A stretch of 64,000 nucleotides of DNA from Christensenellales bacterium (GTDB lineage Bacteria; Bacillota; Clostridia; Christensenellales; Aristaeellaceae), in the NCBI GenBank assembly GCA_050952935.1, contig JBMNLS010000002.1:646988-710987 (forward strand), given 5' to 3'. The notes beneath the pieces were generated by a model. The model was not told where the DNA came from. It searched no databases and worked only from the letters and a program-made list of their open reading frames with translations. Below are positions 28,717 to 50,988 of this stretch, piece after piece (the first letter of the stretch is position 1; each line of letters starts with the position of its first letter). The position numbers and the translations under genes were made by a program.

Positions 28717-28762
28717 TGGTCGAGGTGACAGGATTTGAACCTGCGACCTTTTGGTCCCGAAC
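28717..28762 (-). repeat. attL-type direct repeat: displaced 3' 46 nt of tRNA-Pro
   Basis: 46/46 identity with 50943-50988. Confidence 0.9.
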
Positions 28763-31944: not shown

Positions 31945-32163
31945 AATAGATTAAATCTCCTTTCTTCAATTCATATAATCTCTTTAGCGATAGAATAGCA
32001 TTTTTCTAGAATTTTGCAAGTGAAACTTATTTTTGGACAGTAAAATGATTAATTTTCGTCAATGAAAATCTACTTACTATATTTTAATATTTATTATGTA
32101 AACATAGAGGAAAAACATTCGTCAACTATCCTGGCTATGCTATAAAATGTAATAAGGGAGGGT

Positions 32164-33228: not shown

Positions 33229-33301
33229 ATTCAAAAAAGAAAACTACATCCATAGAAACAAATAAAATGGATGAGTTAATAAAAGGAGGAGGACAAACCA
33301 A

Positions 33302-34249
33302 ATGAAAAAGAACATTTTTCGTAACTTTCCCTTTCTGGTAATTCTGGTACTAATGTTGACAGTCACCGTAGCTTTTGCCGAAGGAAGAACAATCGGAACC
33401 GTTATTTTAGATGGGACTAATCCACACTGCACTCTCTTCGAAAAAGGATTTCGTAGTATAGTGGAAGATAAATATGGCGATAAAGCTGTTGTTTTGGACG
33501 CTCTTGGCGATCCCGAAACTCTCATCAATAGCATTAGTGATTTAATGTCACAACAAGTTGATGGTATTGTGCTAGAAGCTTGTGATGCTGAAGCGCCAAT
33601 TGCAATCCTTAAAGAAGTCAAAAACTTAATGGGGATCCCTGTAGCGGCAGCAGATATGTATTTAGCGACCACTGAAGAAGAAGGCTTGGTAATCAGCCAA
33701 ACAGTTTCACAGAACTATGAAGCAGGAGTCGCGGTTGCTGAAGACCTTCTTAAAAGAGTTGGCACCAAGGATACTAATGTTTGTATTTTGGAAATGAAGC
33801 AAAACAGCTCTGGTATGATGCGTATTCAGGGTTTCCTTGATACAATAAAAGGTCATGATAATATAATTATTATCGAACAATCACAACCCAGCGAAGATTC
33901 TGTTGAAGCAAAACTAGCACTCGCTGAAATCTGGGTGCAGAAACACGAGAACATTGATGCAGTATTCTGTTATCATGATGTTGCTTCGCTTACCGTTGTC
34001 CAGGCTTTAAAAGCAGCTGGAAGGCTTGACGGTGTGCTGATTTATGGTGTTGACGGATCTCCGGATGCCATGCTTGCTATTAAGAAAGGAGAGATGACTG
34101 GTACTAGTAAGCAACAGCCTGATCAGATGGCTATACATTCCGCAGAGGATGTGTACACAGTACTTAATGGCGGTACTATCGAACATGAATGGGAGGTTTA
34201 CATACCTACTGTGTTTGTCGATGCAAGCAATGTAGATCAATATCTGTAA
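33302..34249 (+). CDS. Sugar ABC transporter substrate-binding protein (RbsB/LacI-type fold)
   Basis: Signal peptide plus periplasmic-binding-protein pattern; operon with a ribose-type ATPase and permease. Confidence 0.75.
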   Translation: MKKNIFRNFPFLVILVLMLTVTVAFAEGRTIGTVILDGTNPHCTLFEKGFRSIVEDKYGDKAVVLDALGDPETLINSISDLMSQQVDGIVLEACDAEAPIAILKEVKNLMGIPVAAADMYLATTEEEGLVISQTVSQNYEAGVAVAEDLLKRVGTKDTNVCILEMKQNSSGMMRIQGFLDTIKGHDNIIIIEQSQPSEDSVEAKLALAEIWVQKHENIDAVFCYHDVASLTVVQALKAAGRLDGVLIYGVDGSPDAMLAIKKGEMTGTSKQQPDQMAIHSAEDVYTVLNGGTIEHEWEVYIPTVFVDASNVDQYL

Positions 34250-34357
34250 AAAATGATTTGTTGAGTATTTACTTAATGTATAAATCAGAGTAAGACAAGA
34301 CGATTTTTGCTGGGCGAGAAGCAAGTTGTGCTTATCGCCTGGCAATTGGTAGGAATT

Positions 34358-35872
34358 ATGAATGATGCGATTTTATTGATGAATTCCATTGTAAAGAAGT
34401 TTCCTGGCGTGAACGCTTTACGAAATGTGGATTTTGAGTTACGAAAGGGTGAAGTCCATGCACTATTAGGCGAGAATGGCGCAGGAAAATCAACACTCAT
34501 GAAATGTTTAAGCGGTATACACACTATAGATAGTGGCAGCATTTCACTTGATGGAAAAAAAATCGAAATCAAATCTGTGCAAGATGCGATACGAAATAAT
34601 ATCAGTATTATTCATCAAGAACTTGTATTATGTGAAGAATTAACCATAGCGGAAAACATATTTATGGGCCGAGAACCAATAGGGAAATGTCGATTAACAA
34701 ACAAGAGAAAGCTATATAATGAAGCCCAAAAAATAATTGATCGAATTGATAGTAGTTTGAATGTTTATCGAAAAGTAAATTCGTTGTCAACTGCGCAAAA
34801 ACAAATGGTAGAAATTGCGAAAGCTTTAAGCATGAATGTAAGGATTCTGATCATGGATGAACCGACTGCAATGCTTTCACAACGTGAAGTTAATGCTCTA
34901 TTTTTGCTAATTCGTTCTCTGAGAGATGAAGGGATATCAATTGTTTATATTTCTCATAGAATGGAAGAAATATTTCACATATCTGATCGTATTACTGTAT
35001 TAAGAGATGGTATGTTGATTAAAACTTTGGAAACATCAAAAACTAACAATCAAGAATTAATAGACTTGATGGTCGGTCGAAAGCTTGAAGAATATTATGT
35101 TCGCACAGACCACAATATTGGCGGAACAATATTTGAGGCAAAAAACATTAATAGGTATGATGGGCGTGTGGTAAATGCTAACTTTCATCTAAGAAAGGGT
35201 GAAGTATTAGGCTTTGCCGGTCTAGTTGGATCGGGAAGAACCGAACTGATGCGTGCAATATTTGGTATTGATAGATTTGTTTCTGGAGAGATCTTGATCA
35301 ATGATAAACCAGTCGTTATTAGAACTGTTGAAGACGCAATAAACCTTGGTATTGGAATGGTTCCTGAGGACAGAAAGCTAGAGGGGCTTTTTCTACATCG
35401 TGAGGTTATGTTCAATATCACTTTAGGTGTTTTAGGTAGATTTATATCACTTTTCCGGATAGATCATCACAAAGAAGATATGATCGCTGATCAATATATT
35501 GACATGCTATCCATTAAGGTAAGTTCCAGAAATCAAGTTGTAGAAACTTTATCTGGAGGGAATCAACAGAAAGTGGTGCTTTCAAAATGGCTTGTTATGT
35601 CTCCCAATATATTAATTTTAGATGAACCAACTCGTGGTATCGATGTTGGTGCAAAAGCAGAGGTTTATGCAATTATTGATGATCTCGCTAAAAAAGGTAT
35701 TAGTATTATCTTGGTCTCTTCAGAAATGATGGAACTCATTAATATATGTGACCGCATTTATGTAATGTGTAATGGACATATTAGTACTTGTCTTCATCGC
35801 AATGAGATGAAGCAGGAAACAATTCTAAAGCATGCGCTAGGAGTGAATGAGTATGCAAGATGTGAAAAATAA
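34358..35872 (+). CDS. Sugar ABC transporter ATP-binding protein, duplicated ABC domains (RbsA-like)
   Basis: GENGAGKST Walker A, two LSGG-type signatures (LSTAQKQ, LSGGNQQK). Start chosen at MNDAILLM. Confidence 0.9.
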   Translation: MNDAILLMNSIVKKFPGVNALRNVDFELRKGEVHALLGENGAGKSTLMKCLSGIHTIDSGSISLDGKKIEIKSVQDAIRNNISIIHQELVLCEELTIAENIFMGREPIGKCRLTNKRKLYNEAQKIIDRIDSSLNVYRKVNSLSTAQKQMVEIAKALSMNVRILIMDEPTAMLSQREVNALFLLIRSLRDEGISIVYISHRMEEIFHISDRITVLRDGMLIKTLETSKTNNQELIDLMVGRKLEEYYVRTDHNIGGTIFEAKNINRYDGRVVNANFHLRKGEVLGFAGLVGSGRTELMRAIFGIDRFVSGEILINDKPVVIRTVEDAINLGIGMVPEDRKLEGLFLHREVMFNITLGVLGRFISLFRIDHHKEDMIADQYIDMLSIKVSSRNQVVETLSGGNQQKVVLSKWLVMSPNILILDEPTRGIDVGAKAEVYAIIDDLAKKGISIILVSSEMMELINICDRIYVMCNGHISTCLHRNEMKQETILKHALGVNEYARCEK

Positions 35873-36857
35873 AAGTGAATTTGATACATTCAAAACACGA
35901 TTTATTACCGCTTTAAAGACCAATTCAAGCGTTTTTATTGCTTTCGCTATTGTTTTTATTCTTGCTTCGTCTATTTCACCTAAGTTTCTTACTTTCACAA
36001 ATCAGATGATTGTTTTAAGAATGATTTCAGCGACAACTTTGACTGCATTTGGAATGTCGTTCGTAGTGCTTACAGGAGGTATTGATCTATCTGTTGGTTC
36101 ATATATGTCACTTGCAGGTTGTTTGACAACCATTTTGATTTCGTGGTATGAGTTTAATACTATTATTGCAATATTTCTTGCTGTTTGTGTTGGGTTAGTT
36201 TTTGGTGCACTAAATGGTCTAATAATCACCAAAATGCATATGCCTCCGTTTATCGTGACTTTAGCAACGATGAATATAATGCGTGGTATTTCCTATACAA
36301 TCACAGGAGGTAAACCAGTTTCAATAAAATCAGATCCGCTTTTTGAAAGAGTAGGTGCAGGTTTCATTGGGAAGGTTCCCATAGCAGTCGTTTATATAAT
36401 TGTCGTTTTTTGTGTTCTGTGGATGCTATTAAATCGATCTCGTTTTGGACGACATGTGTACGCTGTTGGAGGTAATATTAAAGCGGCCTCATACTCTGGA
36501 ATCAATACGAATAGAATAATTTTTTATTCGTATATTCTAACTGGAATTCTCGCTGCTTTCGGAGGAGTCATTCTTGTTTCACGCTTAAATTCCGGTCAAC
36601 CAACAATTGGTGAAGGAGCTGAATTGGATGCTATTGCTGCTTGCATAGTTGGTGGAATGAGTCTATCAGGTGGTGTCGGCACATTGACAGGCACATTTAT
36701 AGGTGCCATTCTAATGGGAGTCATTAGCAACATGCTAAACTTGGTAGGGGTTAATTCTTTTGTTCAACTAATTATCAAGGGAATAATAATTGTTTTCTCT
36801 GTTTACATTAATACACTTCGCAGTTATGCTACCAGGACAAGAAAAATTGATAATTAA
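35853..36857 (+). CDS. Sugar ABC transporter permease (RbsC-like)
   Basis: Polytopic; GGIDLSVG motif; overlaps the ATPase stop. Confidence 0.85.
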   Translation: MQDVKNKSEFDTFKTRFITALKTNSSVFIAFAIVFILASSISPKFLTFTNQMIVLRMISATTLTAFGMSFVVLTGGIDLSVGSYMSLAGCLTTILISWYEFNTIIAIFLAVCVGLVFGALNGLIITKMHMPPFIVTLATMNIMRGISYTITGGKPVSIKSDPLFERVGAGFIGKVPIAVVYIIVVFCVLWMLLNRSRFGRHVYAVGGNIKAASYSGINTNRIIFYSYILTGILAAFGGVILVSRLNSGQPTIGEGAELDAIAACIVGGMSLSGGVGTLTGTFIGAILMGVISNMLNLVGVNSFVQLIIKGIIIVFSVYINTLRSYATRTRKIDN

Positions 36858-36912
36858 GATTTATAATATGCTACAATAAGTAAGAAGATATATAATAAAG
36901 GAGGAACTGGTA

Positions 36913-37380
36913 ATGAAAGAAAACATATCTCATATAGGACATTATGGTATCACAGTAAGCAACTTAGAAAGAACACGAGATTTTTATGAAAATGTGCTTG
37001 GATTTGAATATGAAGGAAAACTTACTATGGACGATGGGTCGGATATTCTAGACATTCCTGCTTATGAAGAGGTAACTGGTGTGCCAGGTGTTAAGTTTAG
37101 AATCATGAACATGAAGGGCTATGGAATTAATCTTGAGTTTTTGCAGTACATATATCCCGAAGAGATTGAGATTGAAATACAGCCATATATTCGTGGCACA
37201 TCGCATTTAGCCCTTGTGGTCAAGGATCCAGAAAAAGCTTATGCAGAATTAAAGAATAAAGGTGTATGGGTTTCTTCTGATCGCGCTGCTTGCATTGATA
37301 GAGGAACACATAAAGGAGTTTATGCCAATTACTTTAGAGATCCTGATGGATTTATCCTTGAATTTGTCAAACCGAACTAA
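36913..37380 (+). CDS. VOC/glyoxalase-family protein
   Basis: ISHIGHYGITVSNLERTRDFYENVLGF and DPDGFILEF motifs. Confidence 0.8.
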   Translation: MKENISHIGHYGITVSNLERTRDFYENVLGFEYEGKLTMDDGSDILDIPAYEEVTGVPGVKFRIMNMKGYGINLEFLQYIYPEEIEIEIQPYIRGTSHLALVVKDPEKAYAELKNKGVWVSSDRAACIDRGTHKGVYANYFRDPDGFILEFVKPN

Positions 37381-37462: not shown

Positions 37463-37502
37463 GGTACTGTCAAGAATTTTACGCATAATTCTTGACAGTA
37501 CC
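37463..37502. repeat. Perfect 16-bp inverted repeat; one arm recurs at 29190-29210
   Basis: ggtactgtcaagaatt-ttacgcat-aattcttgacagtacc; followed by a tandem gacagtacc duplication (37494-37511). Confidence 0.8.
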
Positions 37503-37635: not shown

Positions 37636-38772
37636 TTATTCTTCCACAGGGATTGTTATCAATGTGTTTGGAAAATTAGTTAGTTTCTCGATTTCATTTT
37701 CTCTAATAAGAACCATATCCTCATATCTTACACCAATATTATTCTTGGGATCTCTAAGAAAAACATCAATGCAGAATACCATATTTTCTTTCAAAATATA
37801 CTCTGAACCCATTTCAATCCATGGATTTTCACATTCAACTAATCCAACGCTATGACAAGGTCCATAAACAAGCATATGCAAATTCCCCTGTTTTTCTATT
37901 TCATGCCGGTGAGCTTCTGCAACAAGTCTAGCGGGTTTACCATAGTTATCATTAATTGCGTTCTCGACTATTGTTTTGGCCTTGATACAACTATCAATAA
38001 TATGTTTTTGTGCTTGTGTTGGTTCACCCATAATTACTGCTCGACCAATTGCAGAAGCATAGCCCTCATAGCGAGCACCAAGCTGAATCTGTACAATAGA
38101 ACCTTTTCGAATTATCATTTTCGATGATGACGAAATTGCATATTCGGTATCCGTATCACAAGTTATCCACGCAGGGAATGCCTCACCCTCTGCGCCTTCC
38201 ATATACATTTTTTCAAGTGCAAATCCCTTCAACTCTTCGCAGGTCATTCCTACCTTAATATTCTTGAGCACATGCTCAAAAGCTGCTCTAGAAATGCGAG
38301 CAGCTTCCTTGAGACAACTAATTTCTGCGATAGATTTTTCAGCTCTTAAACTATCTACAATATCATCTGCTGGAATGATTTCAGCATGTGGTGCAACCAC
38401 ACCTAGTGATGACCTTATTTCGTCTGAAACCTCACGTGGAATAAACACCCAACCGACAATGCCTAATTTCTTAATTGGTTTTACTTGATTATATTGATTT
38501 AGAAGTTGAGAAAAACTATGAAAAGTATTATCTTCGTATTTGGGAGCAGAGGACTCACGAAAAGCGATCATTCTTTTTACAGACCTAAGCTTACTATGAG
38601 CCAATGCTCTTTCATAGCTTTCTGGTCCAACTAGAAGCGAAGCAGATTCTTGACAAGGTATCGCAATGCCTGCGGTCTCAAACACTGGTTGGAAATCCGA
38701 GAAATATCTTACATACTGAGGTTCAGCATTGTGGCCAAAAGCAATTAATACATCAATCTCATTAATTGCCAT
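37636..38772 (-). CDS. M24-fold (creatinase/prolidase-like) hydrolase, atypical metal-ligand positions
   Basis: Creatinase_N-like N-domain plus a pita-bread C-domain (GPCHSVGLVECENP). The expected Asp ligands appear replaced (IVQIQLGARYEGYASAIGRAV). Confidence 0.65.
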   Translation of the reverse strand: MAINEIDVLIAFGHNAEPQYVRYFSDFQPVFETAGIAIPCQESASLLVGPESYERALAHSKLRSVKRMIAFRESSAPKYEDNTFHSFSQLLNQYNQVKPIKKLGIVGWVFIPREVSDEIRSSLGVVAPHAEIIPADDIVDSLRAEKSIAEISCLKEAARISRAAFEHVLKNIKVGMTCEELKGFALEKMYMEGAEGEAFPAWITCDTDTEYAISSSSKMIIRKGSIVQIQLGARYEGYASAIGRAVIMGEPTQAQKHIIDSCIKAKTIVENAINDNYGKPARLVAEAHRHEIEKQGNLHMLVYGPCHSVGLVECENPWIEMGSEYILKENMVFCIDVFLRDPKNNIGVRYEDMVLIRENEIEKLTNFPNTLITIPVEE

Positions 38773-39674
38773 CCGTTAACAGCATTTTCTTCATTCAAAC
38801 TACAAATCTTTGCATACATCTCTTCTGTTGTTTTCATTCTGTTTTGAAAATTTGTGCTTTCTCGAACCTGATGATCTGCTTCAGCGAGTCCAATCAACTT
38901 TGCGGTGTATGGATGAACAGGAAAGTGAACAATATCGTTAGTTTTTCCAGATTCCACAATACGTCCGTCGTTTAGCACATATATACGATCACACAAATGA
39001 TATAGTAAACCTATATCTCTTGACGCAATTAGAGTTGAGAGTTTATTTTCGCTAATTAACCCCTTGATTAAATTAAAAACTTGGATCTGAATTGTTACAT
39101 CTAGCCCTCCCGTTGGCTCATCTGCTAAGAGCAAGGAAGGTTCACATATTAGAGCAATTGTAATTAAAACTCTTTGAGCCATACCACCGCTAAGCTCGTT
39201 AGGAAAACTATTGTATCGTTTTTCCGGATCTGGAATACCAACAAGTCCTAATAGTTCTATAACACGAGAATGTGCCTGATCATTGGTTACTCGGAAATGT
39301 GACATATAGATTCTTTTGATTTGATTACCAATCGTATCAATTGGGTCGAGTCGCCAATGGGGATTTGGTTTTATGCTCGCAACTTGTCTTCCTAAATACT
39401 CTTTTCTTAGAGTTTCTAAATCTATCTCTAAAAGATTAATTCCGTTAAGAATTACTTCACCTTTCGAAATCATTAAGGGTTCGCTCAATGAATTTATTAT
39501 TGCACTCAACAAAACGGACTTACCAGATCCAGAACCTCCAATTATACCAACACATTCAGTCTCATCAATTGTGATGTTTATATTATCTAGCAGTGGTTTG
39601 TCGAGATTACTGTCTGTTCCAGCCAGCATTACAGTTAAGCCTTTCACCTCTAATATAAGCTTTTGATGCTCCAT
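38745..39674 (-). CDS. Opp/Dpp-type ABC transporter ATP-binding protein (the only ATPase in the locus)
   Basis: GGSGSGKS Walker A, LSGGMAQR signature, LLLADEPT Walker B, HPYT C-terminal motif. Confidence 0.85.
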   Translation of the reverse strand: MEHQKLILEVKGLTVMLAGTDSNLDKPLLDNINITIDETECVGIIGGSGSGKSVLLSAIINSLSEPLMISKGEVILNGINLLEIDLETLRKEYLGRQVASIKPNPHWRLDPIDTIGNQIKRIYMSHFRVTNDQAHSRVIELLGLVGIPDPEKRYNSFPNELSGGMAQRVLITIALICEPSLLLADEPTGGLDVTIQIQVFNLIKGLISENKLSTLIASRDIGLLYHLCDRIYVLNDGRIVESGKTNDIVHFPVHPYTAKLIGLAEADHQVRESTNFQNRMKTTEEMYAKICSLNEENAVNGWQLMRLMY

Positions 39675-39682
39675 TTATATCA

Positions 39683-40549
39683 TTACCTCCAGTTTCGCGG
39701 ATCTATTGATTGAGCGATACCTTCACCAAGCATCGACAAACCAAAAACCAACAATCCTAGCATCATGCCAGGGAATACGACGGGCCACCATTTTCCAATG
39801 ATCATCCCCCGAGCCCCAATAGAGATCATAAGTCCCAGCTCAGGTTGAGGCATACTTACTCCGGCACCAACAAAGCTAAGACCCGCTGCCAATAATATTG
39901 ATGATGCAATGCATGTTGATATTTGTGTTATAGCAGGTGAAATCGCATTTGGCATTATGTGTTTAAAAAGAATAGCGCTGTTGCGCTGACCAATCACTCG
40001 TTCCTGTAACACAAACAAACTGTCTCTGATCCTGAGTACCTCTGTACGAACAAGTCTAGCGAAAACTGGAACCCATATAAAACCCAATACGTAGATAACA
40101 TTGTTAACGTTTTTTCCAGTAATTGCAACAACTGCAAGACCTAATATAAATACTGGGAAAGCTTGAATCACATCAAGGATTCTTATTATTAATAAACTAA
40201 TGTAGCTGTTAATTCCTTTTCCTGATTCATAATATCCAATGTAAAGGCCTAATGGAATCCCTATGACTACTCCTAGTGCGGTAGCCAAGATACCAATGAA
40301 AAGATCAATCCGTGGCGCATAAAGCAAACGCGTAAAAACATCCATCCCCATAGAATCTGTTCCCATTAAATGTAGACCGTCTGGAGGATGATTATACTCG
40401 CCTGTGAAAACCTCAGTTGGAGAGTATGGTGATAATTGAGGCGCAAAAATGGTTAAGATTATTAGTGGAAACAAAATACCTATTCCGATTATCAGATTGA
40501 TATTAAGATATTTGCCAATAGAACTATAAGTTTTCCTTTTATTAATCAT
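39683..40549 (-). CDS. Opp/Dpp-type ABC permease (DppC-like)
   Basis: Polytopic, BPD-transporter pattern, operon context. Confidence 0.8.
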   Translation of the reverse strand: MINKRKTYSSIGKYLNINLIIGIGILFPLIILTIFAPQLSPYSPTEVFTGEYNHPPDGLHLMGTDSMGMDVFTRLLYAPRIDLFIGILATALGVVIGIPLGLYIGYYESGKGINSYISLLIIRILDVIQAFPVFILGLAVVAITGKNVNNVIYVLGFIWVPVFARLVRTEVLRIRDSLFVLQERVIGQRNSAILFKHIMPNAISPAITQISTCIASSILLAAGLSFVGAGVSMPQPELGLMISIGARGMIIGKWWPVVFPGMMLGLLVFGLSMLGEGIAQSIDPRNWR

Positions 40550-41574
40550 ATCTCTATCCTCGGATCAATTGAATAATAGATAATGTCTAATATTAGATAC
40601 ACTAAGAATGAGATAATCGCTGACACAAGCACAATCATTTGCATCGGAGTATAATCAGAATGGGTGATTGATTGGACAGCGTATTGCCCAAGACCACCCC
40701 AGCTAAATATGTTTTCGACTAAAACACTCCCACCAAGCATAAAAATATATATGTAGCCTATAAGTGTAAGAACTGGTGGAAGAGAATTCCTAAAGATCAT
40801 ACTTTCAACGTACTTAGAATCAAGACCATTGTCTTGAGCATATTTTACATACTCATCTTTTTGAACACGCAGCATCGTTGCTTGGGCCATTTTTAGTATA
40901 GGAGCAGCATTCACAATCACTAACGCAAGCACAGGCGCAACAAGATGTGCGCAAGCGTTACCAAACAATTCCCATTCTCCTTGAAGCAGCGCATCAATTG
41001 TGTAAAATCCAGTAATGTGTGCTGGAGGTAGAAACTTAATATCAAGACGTCCAATTGGTGCGGGTATTACTTTAGCAAGTGCATAGAGAAGATATACAAT
41101 TACAAGAGATAACCAAAAATCCGGGAAAGCTCCGCCCAAAAATCCATATCCTCTGAGAATCTTGTTAATAACTTTATTTCCGCGGATAACCGTGACTTTC
41201 GCTATATATAACGAAAAAACAATGATAAAAAACATCGAAATTGTGACAAGTTCTAATGTAGCAGGAAGACGCTGGCTAATATCAAGCAATACAGGGTTTG
41301 ATGTAAACCATGAGTTTCCCATGTTGCCTGTAACGAGATCACGTATGAAATAAAAGTACTGAAGATACATTGGCTTGTTTAAACCCATTCGTTCCGAGAG
41401 GGCAGCGACAGCCTCTTCTGAAGCTCCTTGTCCTAGAAGTATATATGCTGGATTTCCAGGAATTAATCTAACAAGTAGGAATACTACAATTGTTACTCCA
41501 ATTAGTTGTGGAAAAAGGAATAGAAGGCGTCTTCCGATGAATTTGAATGTTTTTTGAAATCTAAACCTGCTCAT
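40546..41574 (-). CDS. Opp/Dpp-type ABC permease (DppB-like)
   Basis: MSRFRFQKTFKFIGRRLLFLFPQLIGVTIVVFLLVRLIPG is a typical DppB N-terminus. Confidence 0.85.
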   Translation of the reverse strand: MSRFRFQKTFKFIGRRLLFLFPQLIGVTIVVFLLVRLIPGNPAYILLGQGASEEAVAALSERMGLNKPMYLQYFYFIRDLVTGNMGNSWFTSNPVLLDISQRLPATLELVTISMFFIIVFSLYIAKVTVIRGNKVINKILRGYGFLGGAFPDFWLSLVIVYLLYALAKVIPAPIGRLDIKFLPPAHITGFYTIDALLQGEWELFGNACAHLVAPVLALVIVNAAPILKMAQATMLRVQKDEYVKYAQDNGLDSKYVESMIFRNSLPPVLTLIGYIYIFMLGGSVLVENIFSWGGLGQYAVQSITHSDYTPMQMIVLVSAIISFLVYLILDIIYYSIDPRIEI

Positions 41575-41623
41575 ATTGTTCCTCTTAGTTATTAGCTGTA
41601 AAATTAGGATCTTTGAGGAGGTA

Positions 41624-41662
41624 GTCCTGGAAGGAAGGATGTTTTCTCAATCCTTCCAGGAC
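41624..41662 (-). other. Intercistronic 12-bp hairpin between the SBP gene and the first permease gene
   Basis: gtcctggaagga ... tccttccaggac. Confidence 0.6.
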
Positions 41663-41683
41663 CTACTGCATACAATTACTGTT

Positions 41684-43294
41684 TTACTTATTAATGTCTA
41701 GTAAATCCCAATAAAAGTCATTAACTGTATCATAAACTAAACGACCACCTACATAATCGCGCTTGGCAATTTGCAGGTTTGTTGATACTACTGGCACAGC
41801 ACAAACCTCATCGACTAGTATTTTCTGTATTTCTTCATGATAAGCGACACGCTCACCGTAATCTAGTATTCCCGCACCAATATTGAGCATTTCAGCCACA
41901 GTAGGATTGTCATACTTGCCAAAATTGTTTGATCCGCCTGGTTTAAAATACAAACTGCATCCAAAATTAATATCTGGTTGCACTGGCAAGCCTGTTTCCA
42001 TGCAAATTTGAAGTTCCTTGGCGTATTTCTGTTCAGTTAAGGTTGCCAACATTGTGCTTTTCAATTTAAGCGTAATGCCTATTTTTTCCAGACTCGCTTG
42101 ATATGCTACACAAATTGCTTCATCCATGGGATTTGAATTATCATAACCAATTTCGCAAGTAAAACCGTCAGGATAACCAGCGTCAGTTATAAGCTGTTTC
42201 GCTTTTTCTAAATCATACTCATAAGGCCAGTAGTCTGAAGATCCTGGTATCATTGCTGGAACTTGACTCCTCATCGGAGTACCATAACCCTTATATACAT
42301 CACGTGCGATTTCTTCTGCAGGAAGAGCATAAATCATTGCCTGACGAACAACTGGATCATCGAATATCTCATCTTCACAATCCAAGAAAATCCATGTTGA
42401 ATTTGCAGTAAGAATGTTCCAGACATCAACGCCATCTACGGTTTTTAAATAATTAAGTTCATCTGGATCTAAATTGAGTGCCATATCAATTGTTCCCGCT
42501 TCTAACATGGCCACACGATTCGAAGATTCCGGTATTTCTCGAAGCATAATAATATCAATATCTGGCTTTCCTGCCCACCAATCTTCACGCGCCTTCCATG
42601 TCATATACTGCCCTGCTCGCCATTCAAGCAACTCATATGGAGAAAAGCCACAATTGTTACGAGAAACCCATTCGGTCGCATAAGGGTCGTTTTCCGTAGC
42701 ATGTTGTTTGGCAGCGGTTGAATCTATAAAACTTGTCCAGCTATGGCAATTGATTAGTGCAATAAGTCCATTTGGAGAGTCAAGATGAATCTCATAATTG
42801 TATTCGTCTATGATATTAAGATTCTCTGGTCCAGTAATACCGGCGGTTCCCCATAAGAACGCTTGAAATCCATTTAAAGCTTTTGCACGTTCAAGTGTAT
42901 ATAGAACATCTTGTGTGGTTAATTCATTACCCCATTGACTAGTGACACCCTTCCGTAAACGAAAAGTCGCAGATTTGGCATCATCCTGTACATGAAATGA
43001 TTCAATGAGTCTTCCTTCAACAGCATCGGCGGTTTGAATAGTAAAATCGGGGTAAAAGACATTATTAGCAGCAAGACTTTCATCGAATGGATAGGGTTGT
43101 TCTTTCCAACGCAGCCCTTTGTCACGCATTAAAGAAATGATCTGTCCACCAGTTAATGTGGGTTGTTCAAAATCCAGAGAATTTAGCAGGGTGGGAACTC
43201 CTACAATTAGCGTTTTTTCTTCAGCCAAAACAAAAGGTACAAACAAGGAACTAATTAGTATGGTCGCAGCGAGGAATCCAACTAGCTTTTTCAT
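41684..43294 (-). CDS. ABC transporter substrate-binding protein, family 5 (peptide/nickel/opine type)
   Basis: 536 aa, signal peptide, SBP_bac_5-like pattern, operon context. Confidence 0.8.
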   Translation of the reverse strand: MKKLVGFLAATILISSLFVPFVLAEEKTLIVGVPTLLNSLDFEQPTLTGGQIISLMRDKGLRWKEQPYPFDESLAANNVFYPDFTIQTADAVEGRLIESFHVQDDAKSATFRLRKGVTSQWGNELTTQDVLYTLERAKALNGFQAFLWGTAGITGPENLNIIDEYNYEIHLDSPNGLIALINCHSWTSFIDSTAAKQHATENDPYATEWVSRNNCGFSPYELLEWRAGQYMTWKAREDWWAGKPDIDIIMLREIPESSNRVAMLEAGTIDMALNLDPDELNYLKTVDGVDVWNILTANSTWIFLDCEDEIFDDPVVRQAMIYALPAEEIARDVYKGYGTPMRSQVPAMIPGSSDYWPYEYDLEKAKQLITDAGYPDGFTCEIGYDNSNPMDEAICVAYQASLEKIGITLKLKSTMLATLTEQKYAKELQICMETGLPVQPDINFGCSLYFKPGGSNNFGKYDNPTVAEMLNIGAGILDYGERVAYHEEIQKILVDEVCAVPVVSTNLQIAKRDYVGGRLVYDTVNDFYWDLLDINK

Positions 43295-43400
43295 CTTATT
43301 CTTCCTTTCTATTATTCATTATCGCTCTCCGCGATATAATCTCATATTAGCGAAAACATAAATGCAAAATAGGCTTCAAACTTGAAGGGAATGTTAAACG

Positions 43401-44129
43401 CTAGTTTTTCAATTTCAATAAACGACTTATATTTCCGCCCATTATCTTCTTTCTGTCAGAAACTGATGAAACGGTAACCTCAATTTTTTTGATTTGCACT
43501 TCGAAATCCCAATAGGGACTATCGGTCCCCATCAAAACTCTTTCTGCACCAAGCTTTTGCACACTTTCAACAATTCCACCTGAAATCCCTGATTCGTGTG
43601 CAAGGTAGATATTTGGACAGGATTCTGCTACAGAAACAGCTTCAGGAGTATTTTGCATAAAACCAGAGTGCGCCATTATAATATTTACTTTTGGAAACAT
43701 TTCCGCTATTGGGATGAAAGTATGGGGAATGGCTACCAATTCGTCTCCTGAATATGCGATAATTGGAATATCCAAATCCTGAGCAACTTGAAAGATGGGG
43801 GCAATTGCACCAGTTCCAGTCATCTTGAAACTGTGGGCATTTGCATGAATTTTTATCCCCTTGAATCCATACTTTTCTATTTCGTTGCGTGCTACCTTAT
43901 CATAGTCACGAACTACCCAAGGAGCGGCCATATAGAAGCCTATTAAGCGATCTGGGTGTTGTTTTACAGCGGTGTAGGTATAGTGATTATCAAAATTTTC
44001 ATATCGGAATGGAAATACTACAGCCTTGTCTATCCCAGCTTTATCCATTTTTCGCAACAGGTCATCAGCTGTTTGGCGATCTTTGGTCCCCCATGGCTCG
44101 CCTATGTGATTATGACAATCAATAATCAT
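43401..44129 (-). CDS. Amidohydrolase-2-type metal-dependent TIM-barrel hydrolase
   Basis: MIIDCHNHIG N-terminal HxH motif and a late ...GTDSPYWD Asp motif. Confidence 0.7.
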   Translation of the reverse strand: MIIDCHNHIGEPWGTKDRQTADDLLRKMDKAGIDKAVVFPFRYENFDNHYTYTAVKQHPDRLIGFYMAAPWVVRDYDKVARNEIEKYGFKGIKIHANAHSFKMTGTGAIAPIFQVAQDLDIPIIAYSGDELVAIPHTFIPIAEMFPKVNIIMAHSGFMQNTPEAVSVAESCPNIYLAHESGISGGIVESVQKLGAERVLMGTDSPYWDFEVQIKKIEVTVSSVSDRKKIMGGNISRLLKLKN

Positions 44130-44145
44130 ACTTGCGCTCCTTCAA

Positions 44146-44883
44146 TTACTTTATTCCGAGGATGTTTAAGATGTTTTCTCCAAGAATTTTATTTCGTTTT
44201 TCATTATCTTCAACACCAACACGTATTTTTTCTAACTCAACTCGTTCATCCATATACGGACTATCACTTCCCCATATAATTCGCTCAGTTTCAATTGTTG
44301 ACAGAGCATCGCGTAGTTGCTGCGAAGTTGCGGCAGTCTGGTCGAGGATAATGTTTTTGTTACGTTGAGCAACTCGAATCGCTTCATCAGCAAGATTTCT
44401 AAACCCGGAATGTGAGATTGTAAGCTTTAAATTCGGGTAGTACTTTAGAATTTCTTCACATTGAAGTGGAGTTGAGGAAACATCGTCACCTGTGTGAACC
44501 ATGAGCATTAGTTCTTCGTCTTCACATGTACTAAAACACTCATGCAATAATTCAAAAGAATTGATATTAAAGCCTTCTGATGGCGCTCTAAGCTTTATTC
44601 CACGAGCACCCCAATCTTTCCATAAACGGATTTCATCTTTAATGTTTTTATGTCGCCAAGGATTAAACATAACATAAGCAATTAATCTATCCGAATGCTC
44701 ACGTGCACAACGACAATGCCATTCAATATCGTAATTGAAAATCATTGGTAGAATAATTGACATATCTACACAGTCACGGTCCATATCTCGCAACAACGCA
44801 TCTGGCGTATATCGTACGTCCAGGTGACAAGAAGGCCCCCAAGCAACTCCAAAATGAACATGAGCGTTAACTATTTTGCTCAT
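44146..44883 (-). CDS. Amidohydrolase-2-type metal-dependent TIM-barrel hydrolase (paralog)
   Basis: IVNAHVHFG HxH motif and GSDSPYMD. Start at MSKIV follows a GGAGG RBS. Confidence 0.7.
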   Translation of the reverse strand: MSKIVNAHVHFGVAWGPSCHLDVRYTPDALLRDMDRDCVDMSIILPMIFNYDIEWHCRCAREHSDRLIAYVMFNPWRHKNIKDEIRLWKDWGARGIKLRAPSEGFNINSFELLHECFSTCEDEELMLMVHTGDDVSSTPLQCEEILKYYPNLKLTISHSGFRNLADEAIRVAQRNKNIILDQTAATSQQLRDALSTIETERIIWGSDSPYMDERVELEKIRVGVEDNEKRNKILGENILNILGIK

Positions 44884-45505
44884 CACAACCTCCTGTAATG
44901 CTTGTAGTTGTAGTTTTGGGATGCGCATAAAAGTATGGCGGTGTTGTTACACACATCATCTTTGCGATTTTGTCTTTAGAAATGTTGATAAACACATGAT
45001 TTTTTGAACAATCATTTAAATAATAGCAATCACCTTCGTTCATTATAAAACTATTTCCATCAACAATCATCTTAAACGTCCCAGAAACAACATAGAACAC
45101 CTCCTGTCCATTGTGAGAATATGGTTGTGGTTCTTTCTTATTGTTAGTAGCGCAAAGAGAATGTATGCATACTTCCATGATGTTATTTGAGTTAAAAGCA
45201 GATAAAAATTCTATCTCTAGATTGTTCTCACCAATATTTGTTAATCGATGCCTTTCATTTACTCGAACAAGCTTATATTGCTCATCATTGTTGTTATCTT
45301 CTCCAAGCAATCTGCTAAGTGTTACATCAAGTGCATCGGATATTTTCTTGAGTGTTGTCAAGGAAGGAATATTCTTTCCATTCTCTATTTGAGACAAGAA
45401 GCTAATGGATACACCTACTTTGCTCGATAGATCTTTCAGTGACATTTTTCTGGCTTTACGGATTGTTTTAATGTTGCTACCAAGATTTGTCGTAATAGTT
45501 ACCAT
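44867..45505 (-). CDS. XRE-family HTH + cupin domain transcriptional regulator
   Basis: LKDLSSKVGVSISFLSQIENGK HTH followed by a C-terminal cupin beta-barrel pattern. Confidence 0.85.
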   Translation of the reverse strand: MVTITTNLGSNIKTIRKARKMSLKDLSSKVGVSISFLSQIENGKNIPSLTTLKKISDALDVTLSRLLGEDNNNDEQYKLVRVNERHRLTNIGENNLEIEFLSAFNSNNIMEVCIHSLCATNNKKEPQPYSHNGQEVFYVVSGTFKMIVDGNSFIMNEGDCYYLNDCSKNHVFINISKDKIAKMMCVTTPPYFYAHPKTTTTSITGGCDEQNS

Positions 45506-46240
45506 TTTTTTCTCAAACTTTCAAATAAAATTGATGACAAATTAAAACTCATTCTACAATAAACACGTAAACATAAGTTTACTAATAATAAAAATAGAAC
45601 AGCCTCTTAACTTAAGATTAAATTTAGACTAAAAAGTAGTCGTTGTCAATATTTCTTTTGTTTTTGGTTTGTACTAGTTTGTAGGGATAGTGGGTGAGAA
45701 AGAGAAAAAAAGAGAAGAGAAAGAGTCATATTCGGATGGAATGTTATTATTCCACAATATTCTTGAAAGAACTCTTTCTCTATAAGCAAGTATTACTCAG
45801 GACATGAAGTGCCGACAAGTCTTGATAAACTTTACTTTCAAGTACGATGTTAGCAGGATATCCAGGAAACACAACAGAACACGATCTTACATCTTTTTCC
45901 AGTTGAACCATTATGATAGCACACAGGAATGCCTTATTTGTCGTTCTCGGAGACCATACAGTCATCTCAACCAACACACCAAGGAAGAAATTGCCTTGCT
46001 ACGGAACATGTATAGTGGGAAGAACAGAAAAGAGTCAATCAACATGAACGAAAAGCAGTAAAGCAAAGTTATTTGGTGTTATGTATTTTCTACCTGGTTA
46101 AGTAGCCACAGTACGGCCTGCTCTATAGCGCTCGTATGACCTGTATTGTTTTTTCAATGCAATTTTGCCTATACTTCCGTATTAGGTTACATGATTGCAT
46201 AAAAGGGTGATACAGATTACAGAAAGCACGTCGGTTCGAT

Positions 46241-46786
46241 TTATAATACCTTGATCATAAAAAGCTCTTTCAACATGGTTCCATCCTTCAGGCAAATAGC
46301 ATTTGGCAGTTCTCCCACTTCAATGAAACCCATTTTTTCATACAGTTTTCTTCCCCGCTCATTGCCTTCAATGTAAGTCAGCTCAAGTTGACAAATTCCC
46401 TTTTTTCTGGCAATCGAAATCATCTCTTGAAACATTACAGTACCAATTCCAATGCCCCAGTATTTTTTGATGATAGCAAGAGCTATACCGCCACGATGAG
46501 ATGTTTTGATACGTTTGCGAAAACTGATTTCGCAATTGCCGACAATTTTGTTATTGACAATGCAAACAATCATCAAGTTGCTCTGAGAAGAGTTGATACC
46601 ATTGAGGAATTGAGCCACTTGCTCAACGGTTTCATCACATTCTTCCGGATAACGAAGTATGAAGTTGGTCTCCGATGCACAGGTTTTCACGAAATCCATC
46701 ATTTCAGCTGCATCATGAACCACTGGGCTTCTGAAAAGAGCCTCTTGTTCGTTTTTAAGATATACTTTTTTTGGAGCGAAAATCAT
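46241..46786 (-). CDS. GNAT family N-acetyltransferase
   Basis: [25 protein letters not shown]... matches the acetyl-CoA motif A (Q/RxxGxG/A). Start at MIFAPKK follows a GAGGT RBS. Confidence 0.8.
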
Positions 46787-47107
46787 ACGCAACCTCACAT
46801 AACCATGCAATCATTTTAGAATCAACATACACACACAAATCATTTTCAACACCAAGCTATATTTTCCTCTGAACTACCCATTAATTCTGGACTGGAAAGT
46901 ACTTTTATAATCCAAATATTAGCGGTTCTCATGTGCTACCTCCGCAAAAGGCCTTGGTTTGCCTGTAACCACCGCTGTAGCGTCCTAGAAGCCCCATAGA
47001 CAGCTTATAGATTGTTTTGCGGGAAAACCCCTTCGGCTTCGAATTCAAGAGCGCTGTAGAGCCTTTAAAGAGTCAATTTAAGAATCAATATGAAACATAT
47101 CCTTTGG

Positions 47108-48292
47108 CTATATTGCCAATGCTTCATCAAGTTTGTCAGCAGCTTCCGTATCTCGGGATTTCAGAGCATGGGCATAGACGTTTAGAGTTGTTGAGGTATC
47201 AGCATGACCTAGTCGCTGGGAAACGGTTCTAATGTCCACTCCTTCAGCAATCATCATTGTCGCGTTGTAATGACGCAGTGAATGTAAAGAAACCTTAGGC
47301 AATCCATTTGTAATGAGAAAATTCTTGAACCATCCTGATATTGTATCCGGGTACATGGGCGATCCATTCCAAGCAGTAAAGAGTCTGTCAGAATCAATCC
47401 ATTGATCACCAAGCTCTGATCTGATCTTATTTTGCCAACAGCGATATTCTTGAAGCATTTCACATGCATTTCTGCTCAGCGTAAACTTTCGCCTACCTGA
47501 TATGGTCTTCGGATCCTTCGTTATGATTGTTTTGTTCCCAACATATTGCGAAGTCCTGACAATTTTCATTTGGCGAGTCTCAAAATCTATATCTTTCCAT
47601 TCCAGCCCCATTAATTCTCCACGTCGCAATCCGGTATATAGGAGTAACATTATCATCGTACGATACTGAATTGGGGAGTCGTTCAGAAGAACTATCATTT
47701 GCCTGATCTGCGATTCATTAAGTATTTTGGTTTCCTTATGTTCCAATTTTGGTGGATCAGCCTGATTGGCGACATTATTTTCAACTAGCTGCCATTTTAC
47801 AGCATAGGACAGAATATTAGAAATGAGTCGATGGTGCTCCAAGATTGTTTTGGAAGACAAGGTAGCACCTTTTATTGGTTTACCTCGAAAATCATGTTTG
47901 ATTCCTTCTTCCTTCAGATTGCTATAGAAGCTGTTCAGATGTAGCGGTTTGATGTTTTTTAGCTTCTTGTGACCAATTGCCTTATTAATTCTTTTTAGGA
48001 GATATTCATAGCTGGTTACAGTTTTCGGAGCTAACTTCTGCTTTGCGTATTCATTCATCCATTTTTGCGACAACATTTCAAAGCTCATATTGCCATCATA
48101 ATAATTACCACTTTTTACCTCCTGTTCAAACAGGACCTTTTGTCGCTCCAGTTCTTTTTCTATTTGTCTTTGTGTCATTCCCTCAGGTGGTGTCCACGTC
48201 ATAGATTTATCAATCCGCTGTGCTTTACTGTTTAACCCACAAAATACCCTGATTTGATAACTGCCGTTCTTACGTTTTCTTACAGATGCCAT
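47108..48292 (-). CDS. int: Tyrosine recombinase / site-specific integrase
   Basis: N-terminal SAM-like domain (RKRKNGSYQIRVF...), catalytic-domain motifs TGLRRGEL, HSLRHYNAT and LGHADTSTTLNVYAH (R-H-R-Y set). Confidence 0.9.
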   Translation of the reverse strand: MASVRKRKNGSYQIRVFCGLNSKAQRIDKSMTWTPPEGMTQRQIEKELERQKVLFEQEVKSGNYYDGNMSFEMLSQKWMNEYAKQKLAPKTVTSYEYLLKRINKAIGHKKLKNIKPLHLNSFYSNLKEEGIKHDFRGKPIKGATLSSKTILEHHRLISNILSYAVKWQLVENNVANQADPPKLEHKETKILNESQIRQMIVLLNDSPIQYRTMIMLLLYTGLRRGELMGLEWKDIDFETRQMKIVRTSQYVGNKTIITKDPKTISGRRKFTLSRNACEMLQEYRCWQNKIRSELGDQWIDSDRLFTAWNGSPMYPDTISGWFKNFLITNGLPKVSLHSLRHYNATMMIAEGVDIRTVSQRLGHADTSTTLNVYAHALKSRDTEAADKLDEALAI

Positions 48293-48520
48293 TGTGTCCT
48301 CCTTAACCATTTGTGTAGTAAAGTTTTGATAGTTAACTCCCCCTAACTAATTTATTGACTTCTTTTTGCTTCTTTAGTCAATTTAGAAGAGTTTGATAGT
48401 TTTTTATTGCTTTTCATGATGTTTTCCTTCTCCATCAATATAGAAGAGGGCTTGCCAGGACTCCAAGCAAGCCCCCTAACTATATGAATTTCCATTTGTA
48501 AAGAAATTCCTCCTAATCCA

Positions 48521-49051: not shown

Positions 49052-49297
49052 TTAATTCGCGTTTTCAATGGGTGCAAGCTTTATCACAAAGTTATTGAAC
49101 TCTTCAAGCTCATATTGGTTTCCAACAATTATCTGGTTTGGTGAGCGATAATTGGCACCAACCCATTTTGTTGCTACTGCTTTACCTTCGACACTCTTAT
49201 CTTCATAGGTGAAGTGAATGACGCAATCGGTAACCCTTTGCCCTGTTTTCTTGTTCAGCCTAGAAGTAAGACGTTTACCAATAATTTGAATTTTCAT
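49052..49297 (-). CDS. Small protein of unknown function, paralog of 48742-49035
   Basis: MKIQIIGKRLTSRLNKKTGQRVTDCVIHFTYEDKSVEGKAVATKW; TAATG overlap with the rep stop. Confidence 0.55.
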   Translation of the reverse strand: MKIQIIGKRLTSRLNKKTGQRVTDCVIHFTYEDKSVEGKAVATKWVGANYRSPNQIIVGNQYELEEFNNFVIKLAPIENAN

Positions 49298-50268
49298 TAT
49301 TTTTTCTCCTTATAATTTGTATTATCGTCAGAGATTCCAACCACAGATGGCAGAATTTCACTTGATTTTGTTCGATTGCTGTTGAACTGTTGGTATAGCA
49401 CAGCATTGAGTTCCTGAATGTTTCCCAGCTCATCTTCAGTCACAATTTGCTTTGTAGAAGTGTAGACTTCCCTGGAATTACCTACCAGCTTCATAGCCTC
49501 ACCATAGGGCATTTTCTTTGCCTTGGGCCTGATTATGCCTTTTGAGCAGGAATAGAATCTGAAGTTGGGTGGGTAGAATTTGAACCGAGCACCCTTGACT
49601 ATTGCCTTCCATCCATTAGGATTTTGTTCTGGACATTCTGCATTTTCGAAGGCATCATAGTCAGTGAACATTGCAGAAAAGTAAGCACCGATATTATCTG
49701 AAGATGGCATCTCGCTTACATGGATCAATCCTAATCCCCATAGATCACGCAAATGATCGTAGTCAACATACAGTAACTTACCATTCATCAGCTTTACCAG
49801 GAGATGGATGTGCCAGCGGCCAGCATTTTGTGGTTCAAGGATCCTGATATACTCACAGCCTGGATAGTGATATGTAAATCTTGACCAGAATCGTGAGAAA
49901 TCCTTAGCTACTTTGGTGTAGTCTTGTTCGTTATAGTTGTAAGTTAGTGTGATGTGCAGTTCTGATTGATGGTCACCAATAAAATTTGCATTGATAACTC
50001 TACGAAGGTCAGAGAATGTCTTTCGTAGTCCTTGATGGTTATTAAGCCTTTTTGAAGACTTTTTGTATGTGATAATCTCACCGGTTTTAAGATTGACACA
50101 CCTATCCTTATCCAGACGCCTGTAATTTGAGATAACAGGAGATGGAGGTATTTTAACTGTAATAATCTCGTTGATATTACCTGATGAGATAACCTTACAC
50201 ATATGGTTACTAGAAACAGTAAAAGTTTTACCCTTTAGGTTCTTAATAGTTACATTCTTCTTTTCCAT
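49297..50268 (-). CDS. HUH-type rolling-circle replication initiator-like protein
   Basis: Motif I-like LHITLTY, HUH motif WHIHLLV, Tyr-containing NIGAYFSAMFTDY; AAGGAG RBS before ATG 50268. Confidence 0.6.
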   Translation of the reverse strand: MEKKNVTIKNLKGKTFTVSSNHMCKVISSGNINEIITVKIPPSPVISNYRRLDKDRCVNLKTGEIITYKKSSKRLNNHQGLRKTFSDLRRVINANFIGDHQSELHITLTYNYNEQDYTKVAKDFSRFWSRFTYHYPGCEYIRILEPQNAGRWHIHLLVKLMNGKLLYVDYDHLRDLWGLGLIHVSEMPSSDNIGAYFSAMFTDYDAFENAECPEQNPNGWKAIVKGARFKFYPPNFRFYSCSKGIIRPKAKKMPYGEAMKLVGNSREVYTSTKQIVTEDELGNIQELNAVLYQQFNSNRTKSSEILPSVVGISDDNTNYKEKK

Positions 50269-50942: not shown

Positions 50943-50988
50943 TGGTCGAGGTGACAGGATTTGAACCTGCGACCTTTTGGTCCCGAAC
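50943..50988 (-). repeat. attR-type direct repeat (inside the intact tRNA-Pro)
   Basis: 46/46 identity with 28717-28762. Confidence 0.9.

Follow-up and report, generated by a model that had tools for sequence, protein, structure and literature searches.

In a 64,000-nucleotide (nt) stretch of Christensenellales bacterium GCA_050952935.1 (contig JBMNLS010000002.1, positions 646,988 to 710,987 of the forward strand; this whole stretch is called the window), eight tightly spaced, co-directional genes occupy positions 37636-45505 of the minus strand. They encode a regulator of the XRE-cupin type, two proteins of the Amidohydro_2 family (named AHa and AHb here), a family-5 substrate-binding protein (SBP), two permeases, a single ATPase and a protein with the M24 (creatinase/prolidase) fold. 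On balance, we lean toward the explanation that this operon belongs to a rare, modular catabolic gene family that acts on a sugar conjugate, and that the copy described here, carried by a genomic island, is a deletion derivative. The structural elements of this explanation, namely the operon, the island, the gene family and the deletion, are held with high confidence. The nature of the substrate is proposed more tentatively, at somewhat less than even confidence, as a small sugar-bearing amino-acid or peptide-like conjugate rather than a plain peptide, with Amadori and Heyns glycation products and opine-like compounds as the best candidates.

A first-pass annotation of the same DNA, made from the letters and their open reading frames (ORFs), had described a single minus-strand operon with these components. 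The description agrees with the ORF listing and translations, in which all eight ORFs lie where it had placed them, with the Pfam assignments of every component, and with the occurrence of both motifs it had quoted (IIDCHNHIG and IVNAHVHFG).

A modular gene family with the AHa-AHb pair at its core

Relatives of the operon were gathered by contig look-ups, by pattern scans of genomes and metagenomes, and by BLAST classification of the fetched loci, giving about 19 distinct informative loci; the pattern scans gave 8 loci from genomes and 12 from metagenomes, and the co-occurrence counts are hence small. Wherever the sequence extends far enough, in about 19 distinct loci, AHa lies directly 5' of AHb. 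Across the different architectures, AHa and AHb are 73-82% identical, compared with about 50% for the regulators, 36% between the type 1 and type 2 kinases and 40% for the NagB proteins. Because the pair is so much better conserved than its partners, it represents the heart of the family, around which the remaining genes have been swapped. Thus, the family is modular, with AHa-AHb as its invariant core and an importer that can be of the Opp, ribose or CUT1 type. AHb itself is 73-80% identical to its orthologues, and its homologues comprise about 30 clusters at 60-80% identity, nearly all of them metagenomic, followed by a broad group near 40%. The operon's regulator is 49-53% identical to those of related loci, and the operon's orthologues in L001, a locus from a Eubacteriales metagenome-assembled genome (MAG), reach 82% identity for AHa (over residues 16-261 of the long ORF), 79% for the OppB-like permease and 70% for the OppC-like permease.

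The architecture closest to that of the operon is the type 1 Opp locus with an M24 gene (L001, L008 and L010), which runs from the XRE-cupin regulator through AHa, AHb, the family-5 SBP, two permeases, OppD, OppF and M24 to a PfkB-family kinase. An additional NagB-like gene is found in L010, and in L008 the kinase is followed by a gene resembling ketose 3-epimerases. The ribose-type loci (type II) have the regulator, AHa, AHb, PfkB and NagB, with or without a third Amidohydro_2 protein and a VOC protein, and then a ribose-type ATP-binding cassette (ABC) importer. They come from Anaerotruncus colihominis DSM 17241, Youxingia wuxianensis, Lachnospiraceae, Oscillospiraceae and several gut metagenomes; the first of these hosts is culturable and has an intact version. 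A third arrangement, L026, combines AHa, AHb and M24 with a CUT1-type importer, an EthD protein and Dak1/Dak2, and a related CUT1-type locus, L037, has no M24 gene. More divergent contexts are those of L024, from soda-lake sediment, with AHa, AHb, RidA, a long PfkB, a GntR regulator and two flavoproteins of the old-yellow-enzyme type, and L035/L036, with a LacI regulator, a small HapK-like protein, AHa, AHb and an Opp-type importer that retains both ATPases.

The usual companions of the pair are an XRE-cupin regulator and a PfkB kinase of the fructokinase-like type, and NagB is often among its neighbors. A kinase gene, either PfkB or Dak, adjoins the pair in about 13 of the 16 loci that are sufficiently long. 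The best match of the relatives' PfkB proteins is fructokinase, both in NCBIfam (211-245 bits, under a cut-off of 450) and in the Protein Data Bank (PDB; 5EY7, 3e-54), while the type II NagB passes the nagB model TIGR00502 with 279 bits over a cut-off of 236.9. The components noted at first pass therefore do recur together in other genomes, but as a modular set in which only the AHa-AHb pair is invariant, and not as one fixed cluster. Literature and homologue searches returned no paper on the cluster, on 3CJP/CAC3332 (the closest solved structure to AHb) or on the amidohydrolase pair, and no characterised homologue; nor was any characterised catabolic cluster equivalent to the operon found. 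The cluster family is rare and uncharacterised.

The island and the deletion

The operon is recently acquired cargo of a mobile island. All the marks of an integrative genomic island are present: a tyrosine integrase, perfect direct repeats derived from a tRNA-Pro gene and, in a close relative, the unoccupied site. The island measures 22.2 kb and is integrated in tRNA-Pro. GC content, about 55-59% over the window, falls to 36-43% between roughly 25.4 and 50.6 kb, and the operon has 38.3% against 55% for the 2.68-Mb genome. In the relative GCA_050952985.1 (a Christensenellales MAG; locus L058), the flanks are 96.5-97.6% identical, the flanking transketolase is 98% identical, and the sequence passes straight from the attachment (att) region into the tRNA genes. 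An AHb orthologue was sought in the genomes of 23 other species of the genus and found in none, and only three distant matches were found among the other genomes of a 399-genome sample of the class. The recency of the acquisition follows from the empty site in L058 together with the want of AHb orthologues in the sampled genomes of the genus. The suggestion at first pass that this is no housekeeping Opp system gains support from these observations.

Compared with its relatives, the operon lacks a stretch of about 1.1 kb (measured on L008), a loss that has taken away oppF together with the 3' end of oppD and some 24 codons from the start of the M24 gene. The OppD product matches its orthologues up to ...NAVNGW and then ends as QLMRLMY and a stop, where the orthologues run for about 13 more residues. 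The M24 ORF starts with MAINEIDVLIAFGH, which aligns with residues ~22-35 of its orthologues, and the conserved N-terminal helix is gone. The joint lies within 38761-38769, and the M24 start codon (38772-38770) spans the Gly and Trp codons of oppD. Moreover, the operon's M24 protein is the shortest of 40 homologues, the other 39 having 17-41 more N-terminal residues, and oppF is present in all four distinct complete Opp-type relatives (L001, L008, L010 and L035/L036). Judged from these alignments, the operon owes both its single ATPase and its overlapping ATPase and M24 genes to the deletion, neither feature being native; the single ATPase had at first been read as native, a view that the loss of oppF and the truncation of M24 overturn. 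The same 309-amino-acid (aa) and 378-aa proteins occur on 4 and 6 contigs, respectively, in NCBI, JGI and Logan records, and a one-off assembly error is therefore unlikely. The ATPase tail was also considered as a relic of the M24 N terminus and was rejected, as it matches the C-terminal region of OppD itself up to the Gly-Trp.

The lost functions were not recovered nearby. No oppF lies on the island, and the OppF-like genes of the genome are all in other Opp-like loci; no PfkB or NagB gene follows the operon's M24 gene. In the whole genome, PfkB genes are limited to a ribokinase-like gene of an rbs-type operon and a weaker hit. A chromosomal PfkB beside an ABC importer was considered as a displaced partner and discarded, since it belongs to an ordinary rbsK-rbsD-ABC operon. 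Because oppF, the kinase and the start region of M24 have all been lost, this copy of the operon is probably non-functional or works only with the help of host genes. The island would thus have brought in a damaged copy, a clear case of decay in cargo and a caution that gene content need not mean function.

A second cargo operon (cargo locus 1, 29343-37380), convergent with the one described here, encodes an AraC regulator, an FGGY kinase, a transaldolase-family protein, a ribose-type ABC importer and a VOC protein. Whether it is the missing half of a type II cluster was considered and rejected, its proteins being just 27-45% identical to their type II counterparts; the transporter and VOC proteins are not orthologous to those of the type II loci. 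A 29-nt direct repeat, 93% identical, brackets it at 29182-29210 and 37474-37502, the second copy forming half of the terminator hairpin with a 16-bp stem between both convergent cargo operons. Cargo locus 1 may thus have arrived as a single block, an event that could also have displaced the kinase end of the operon. Between the operon and the integrase lie a GNAT acetyltransferase gene (46241-46810, minus strand) and an 85-aa ORF (45804-46061) with no family match. Outside the island, an insertion sequence (IS) element with a DDE transposase (26892-28501) is 99.8% identical to a copy in L058 that is inverted and sits on the other side of the tRNA genes; this element has therefore moved recently in the lineage.

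Properties of the encoded proteins and of the operon

The two amidohydrolases score 93.3 and 63.8 bits against the Amidohydro_2 model (PF04909; cut-off, 26.4) and match no curated NCBIfam family. They are 30% identical to each other and are therefore old paralogues. The HxH motif, two further His residues and the Asp of a GxDxPY segment are kept in all AHa and AHb orthologues examined (10 for AHa). The AlphaFold2 model of AHb (predicted local distance difference test [pLDDT] score, 92.6) has as its best match, by structure and by sequence, the uncharacterised protein 3CJP (CAC3332 of Clostridium acetobutylicum), and Foldseek next returns Amidohydro_2 decarboxylases, LigJ and LigY at 12-20% identity. 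These matches support the TIM-barrel fold assigned at first pass but do not separate functions within it, and none is transferable to AHb. AHa and AHb probably work together.

Although the M24 protein shares its fold with well-known enzymes, it departs from them at the metal site. It has the pita-bread and Creatinase_N domains of the M24B group but not the five-ligand, two-metal center. When aligned to the Thermotoga Xaa-Pro aminopeptidase 2ZSG, in which the ligands follow the canonical order D, D, H, E, E, it has Gln230 and Ala241 at both aspartate positions, followed by His307, Asp336 (in place of Glu) and Glu351. Across 40 members of its clade, the first aspartate is replaced by Gln (37 members) or Glu (3) and the second by Ser, Ala, Thr or Val, neither aspartate being retained in any of the 40; the His and Glu ligands are invariant. 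The M24 protein is thus non-canonical, and since the loss of the aspartates is clade-wide, this loss is ancient and selected rather than a product of decay. The structure model (pLDDT, 94) matches prolidase, aminopeptidase P, creatinase and DoeA about equally (query TM-scores, 0.72-0.83; those to prolidases and Xaa-Pro aminopeptidases by Foldseek, 0.72-0.82). Creatinase is absent from the PDB sequence matches of the protein at E <= 0.001 and from its NCBIfam matches, only the fold being shared.

The closest relatives of both the regulator (58% identity) and the M24 protein (59%) are in L051 (1761-11188), in which an XRE-cupin regulator is followed by an amino-acid-type ABC importer, flavoenzyme subunits resembling sarcosine oxidase or proline dehydrogenase, and then an M24 gene. 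This gene content ties the regulator and the M24 protein to N-substituted amino-acid chemistry. The genome also has two M24 paralogues, 33-34% identical and with the same loss of aspartates (C1:391963-393045, locus L022, and C2:601396-602451, locus L023); the one on C1 is directly beside a ribose-type ABC transporter gene. In addition, gut metagenomes commonly have a ribose-type ABC operon in which two aspartate-less M24 proteins are encoded in tandem (L052). A widespread M24 clade linked to sugar-type importers seems to have gone unstudied.

The binding protein has a signal peptide and no lipobox cysteine, and its nearest solved structures are HbpA, GsiB (YliB), DppA and the agropinic-acid-binding protein AgaA. 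In mature Escherichia coli DppA, Arg355 holds the peptide carboxylate and Asp408 the alpha-ammonium group. The HMMER alignment to DppA places an Asp at the position of this Arg, in a loop four residues shorter than that of HbpA, and a Leu at that of the Asp. These substitutions are suggestive evidence against an ordinary dipeptide ligand. The segments YDNSNPMD and ETGLPVQPD of the protein are conserved in five orthologues. All the best NCBIfam matches of the transporter and M24 proteins (Opp, Dpp, Nik, Gsi and PepQ models) are far below the curated cut-offs, and the regulator resembles PuuR, again below cut-off.

The positions of the features are collected in Table 1. For AHa, a start at 44883 (245 aa) is most likely, rather than one at 44928, because its orthologues, at 244-245 aa, begin to align only at residue 16 of the long ORF. 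Given this start, the regulator and AHa genes overlap by 17 nt, as they also do in L008. Further downstream, AHa and AHb are separated by 16 nt, the two permease genes overlap by 4 nt, the second permease gene and the ATPase gene are 8 nt apart, and the ATPase and M24 genes overlap by 28 nt. A promoter-like site precedes the regulator gene; such sites number 33 in the region, where 30 are expected from shuffled sequences. The candidate operator between this site and the regulator start is not clearly kept in orthologous loci, and the search 5' of their regulator genes gave no convincing conserved operator. The terminator-like hairpin lies 134 nt past the M24 stop codon, and an Rfam scan of the region matched no RNA family.

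Table 1. Positions in the window of the operon, its signals and the features that define the island
Feature	Position	Strand	Basis or remark
XRE-family helix-turn-helix and cupin regulator, 212 aa	44867..45505	-	Pfam HTH_3 8.6e-18, Cupin_2 5.2e-13
AHa, Amidohydro_2 TIM-barrel, 245 aa	44146..44883 (ORF open back to 44928)	-	Pfam
AHb, Amidohydro_2 TIM-barrel, 242 aa	43401..44129	-	Pfam 3e-26
Family-5 SBP, 536 aa	41684..43294	-	SBP_bac_5 1e-67, 229 bits
OppB/DppB-like permease, 342 aa	40546..41574	-	BPD_transp_1, BPD_transp_1_N
OppC/DppC-like permease, 288 aa	39683..40549	-	BPD_transp_1, OppC_N
OppD-like ATPase, 309 aa	38745..39674	-	ABC_tran
M24 (creatinase/prolidase-fold) protein, 378 aa, N-terminally truncated	37636..38772	-	Peptidase_M24 1e-33, Creatinase_N
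Deletion junction, oppD Gly-Trp codons joined to ~codon 25 of the M24 gene	38758..38772	-	
Promoter-like site TTGACA-17-TAAATT, 5' of the regulator gene	45621..45649	-	Consensus match only
Palindrome GTAAAC-TTAT-GTTTAC, between promoter-like site and regulator start, candidate operator	45567..45582	.	Weak evidence
Terminator-like hairpin, 16-bp stem, between the operon and convergent cargo locus 1	37463..37502	-	
Tyrosine integrase of the operon-bearing island	47108..48310	-	Phage_integrase 2.4e-31
Rep protein within the island	49297-50277		
Distal att repeat, 46 nt, copy of the tRNA-Pro 3' end	28717..28762	.	Perfect direct repeat
Proximal att repeat, 46 nt, inside tRNA-Pro(CGG) 50943-51019	50943..50988	.	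Perfect direct repeat

Candidate substrates and comparison with known systems

Across the loci, the partners of the pair handle either sugars (fructokinase-like kinases, Dak, the ketose-epimerase-like gene, possibly mutarotase-like small proteins and sugar importers) or nitrogen and amino acids (NagB, RidA, M24, the Dpp-like binding protein and the link to secondary-amine oxidation in L051). The presence of both groups points to a small conjugate that links a sugar or amino sugar to an amino-acid-like moiety. At first pass, an uptake-plus-degradation system for a non-standard peptide-like, guanidino or lactam compound had been proposed. The atypical M24 protein and SBP agree with an unusual substrate, but a sugar-bearing conjugate is preferred to a compound of purely peptide-like, guanidino or lactam nature because the partners of the pair elsewhere are sugar kinases, NagB and sugar-type importers.

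In the intact Opp-type members, the atypical family-5 binding protein would capture a small conjugate in which a sugar or amino sugar is linked to a moiety of the amino-acid or peptide-like kind, and the ABC transporter would import it. Cleavage would be carried out by the M24 enzyme, which cannot act as a standard two-metal peptidase, and by the AHa/AHb pair. A kinase, with or without NagB or a ketose epimerase, would then pass the sugar part to glycolysis, and the cupin regulator would sense the conjugate or its product. If this is true, it would be an unrecognised route by which anaerobic bacteria of the gut and of digesters harvest sugar-amino-acid conjugates, for example, food glycation products, using enzymes with no assigned function, i.e., paired Amidohydro_2 proteins and an M24 clade devoid of the two-metal site. 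The more specific proposal that AHa and AHb form a new heteromeric enzyme of the amidohydrolase superfamily, which together with the aspartate-less M24 protein breaks down amino acids and peptides glycated as Amadori or Heyns products, or opine-like conjugates, in anaerobic gut and sediment bacteria, and so takes the place of the SIS-type deglycases of the frl, fra and gfr systems, is speculative, and we consider it improbable.

Several observations weigh against a sugar-conjugate substrate and the scheme built on it. The operon itself has no sugar-handling gene, the case for a sugar coming wholly from its relatives, and SIS-type deglycases and amadoriases, the known Amadori enzymes, occur in none of the amidohydrolase-pair loci. 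Some of these loci lack an amino-acid link (those with ribose-type importers and no M24), and the Opp-type importer of L035 is adjoined by neither M24 nor a kinase. In L019 (4855-16973, from a Spirochaetes MAG), a misfit to the scheme, there is no sugar kinase around AHa-AHb, whose neighbors are a third Amidohydro_2 protein, a radical SAM protein, an aldehyde:ferredoxin oxidoreductase, a thiamine pyrophosphate enzyme and a 3-hydroxyacyl-CoA dehydrogenase. The family has no characterised enzyme; the nearest structures to AHb are an uncharacterised protein and then aromatic-acid decarboxylases, a hydratase and a C-C hydrolase, which do not indicate the bond that is cleaved. The argument from the binding-protein residues leans on an alignment at ~25% identity and on the roles assigned to the DppA residues. 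Finally, the loss of function that we infer for the island copy could be offset if a homodimeric OppD, or an OppF borrowed from the other Opp-like systems of the genome, sustained transport.

Among the alternatives, a working system for a sugar-free non-standard compound (peptide-like, guanidino or lactam, e.g., a cyclic dipeptide, a creatine-like amidine or a dipeptide of N-alkyl amino acids), in which the amidohydrolases open a ring or an amide bond and M24 completes the cleavage, is unlikely. It accounts for the position of the SBP among the DppA, HbpA and GsiB structures, for an M24 fold that matches creatinase and ectoine hydrolase as well as prolidase, for the missing two-metal site of this protein, for the sarcosine oxidase/proline dehydrogenase-like oxidoreductase and amino-acid importer beside the closest M24 and regulator in L051, and for the operon's having no sugar enzyme. 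However, it leaves unexplained the company that the pair keeps in the relatives, where it sits with a fructokinase-like kinase, NagB, a ketose-epimerase-like gene, Dak and importers of the ribose and CUT1 types, and where a PfkB gene follows M24 in all three complete Opp loci with an XRE regulator; the loss of oppF and the truncation of M24 further weaken the notion that the system works. General peptide nutrition through an ordinary permease for oligopeptides or dipeptides, helped by an accessory prolidase, would agree with the names of the best NCBIfam matches (Opp, Dpp, Nik and Gsi models, and PepQ for M24), but every one of these lies far under its curated cut-off. Moreover, M24 lacks two metal ligands, the SBP lacks by alignment the residues that hold the peptide termini, several other Opp-like systems are already in the genome, and the operon is island cargo that the relatives lack, so that we regard this explanation as very improbable indeed.

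Two further explanations keep the sugar and change the chemistry. In the salvage of an amino sugar derivative, such as an unusual N-acyl-glucosamine or the muramic-acid lactam of the spore cortex, AHa/AHb would be a NagA-like deacylase or lactamase, the kinase and NagB would complete a nag-like route, and the Opp version would import a peptide-linked form trimmed by M24. The NagB that passes its cut-off in type II loci, the NagB-like gene of L010, the way in which kinase, amidohydrolase and deaminase mirror NagK, NagA and NagB, and the spore-forming gut Clostridia among the hosts all speak for such a role. On the other hand, NagB is missing from L001, L008 and L014, the kinase matches fructokinase and not the known amino-sugar kinases, an etherase and a glycosidase are both absent, and the Amidohydro_2 enzymes are not known to include an amide deacylase. 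As for the nag pathway proper, the operon has neither NagB nor NagA, and NagA (Amidohydro_1) is in no locus. We consider this salvage improbable. Slightly less probable still is a sugar-acid pathway in which AHa/AHb hydrolyses sugar lactones or has a related C-O or C-C activity, M24 and the Opp importer being unrelated passengers brought in by operon shuffling. The Amidohydro_2 family does contain sugar lactonases, a Mesorhizobium sugar-ABC operon that also encodes a dehydrogenase and a kinase includes a 40%-identical AHb homologue, and small proteins of the EthD/HapK type, possibly mutarotase-like, are found in some loci. Unrelated passengers are nevertheless hard to reconcile with the order regulator, AHa, AHb, Opp, M24, PfkB, which recurs in three independent, tightly spaced loci, or with M24 directly following the pair in a CUT1-type locus too; the close loci have no lactone-making dehydrogenase, and NagB and RidA indicate nitrogen chemistry.

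The likeness of the operon to known systems is partial at each level. With the Dpp, Opp, Gsi and HbpA importers it shares the SBP family, the OppB-like and OppC-like permeases and the OppD-like ATPase; it differs in having no OppF, and hence not the two ATPases of a PepT-family importer, in lacking by alignment the Arg and Asp with which DppA binds the peptide termini, and in widely missing all equivalog cut-offs. The M24 protein has the two-domain fold of prolidase, aminopeptidase P, creatinase and the ectoine hydrolases DoeA/EutD, but the Asp ligands of the prolidase type are replaced and its first ~24 residues are gone. Similarly, AHb is like 3CJP, gamma-resorcylate decarboxylase, ACMSD, LigJ and LigY in its compact, metal-dependent TIM barrel with HxH, His and Asp motifs. 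The characterised enzymes of this group act on aromatic acids, which are ill-suited to the sugar and amino-acid context of AHa-AHb, while 3CJP has no assigned function; AHa-AHb differ from this group in being two diverged paralogues that are always adjacent.

At the level of whole pathways, the opine and Amadori-opine regions of Agrobacterium plasmids are horizontally mobile cargo in which SBPs of the family-5 or amino-acid type are paired with enzymes acting on sugar-amino-acid or secondary-amine conjugates. AgaA is among the structural relatives of the operon's SBP, and the comparison is one of analogy; the cluster family has anaerobic Clostridia among its hosts and uses different enzymes. 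The frl operon of E. coli and Bacillus subtilis and the Salmonella fra and gfr loci, which serve the catabolism of fructoselysine, fructose-asparagine and glucoselysine (PMC5270733), are similar to the cluster family in combining a regulator and an importer of their own with a PfkB-family kinase and, optionally, a FrlC-like ketose epimerase, and in the fra locus an amide hydrolase is the first-acting enzyme. Their SIS-domain deglycases (FrlB, FraB and GfrE/F type) have no counterpart among the called genes of the fetched pair loci, and a ketosamine 6-kinase is not in evidence either, as the operon has no kinase and the PfkB proteins of its relatives score 64-70 bits against the FrlD cut-off of 247. 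Instead, an Amidohydro_2 pair and a non-canonical M24 protein stand in the place of these enzymes, and an XRE-cupin regulator in that of GntR. Consequently, the cluster family is not a member of the frl/fra/gfr group, but, by analogy, its working principle may be similar.

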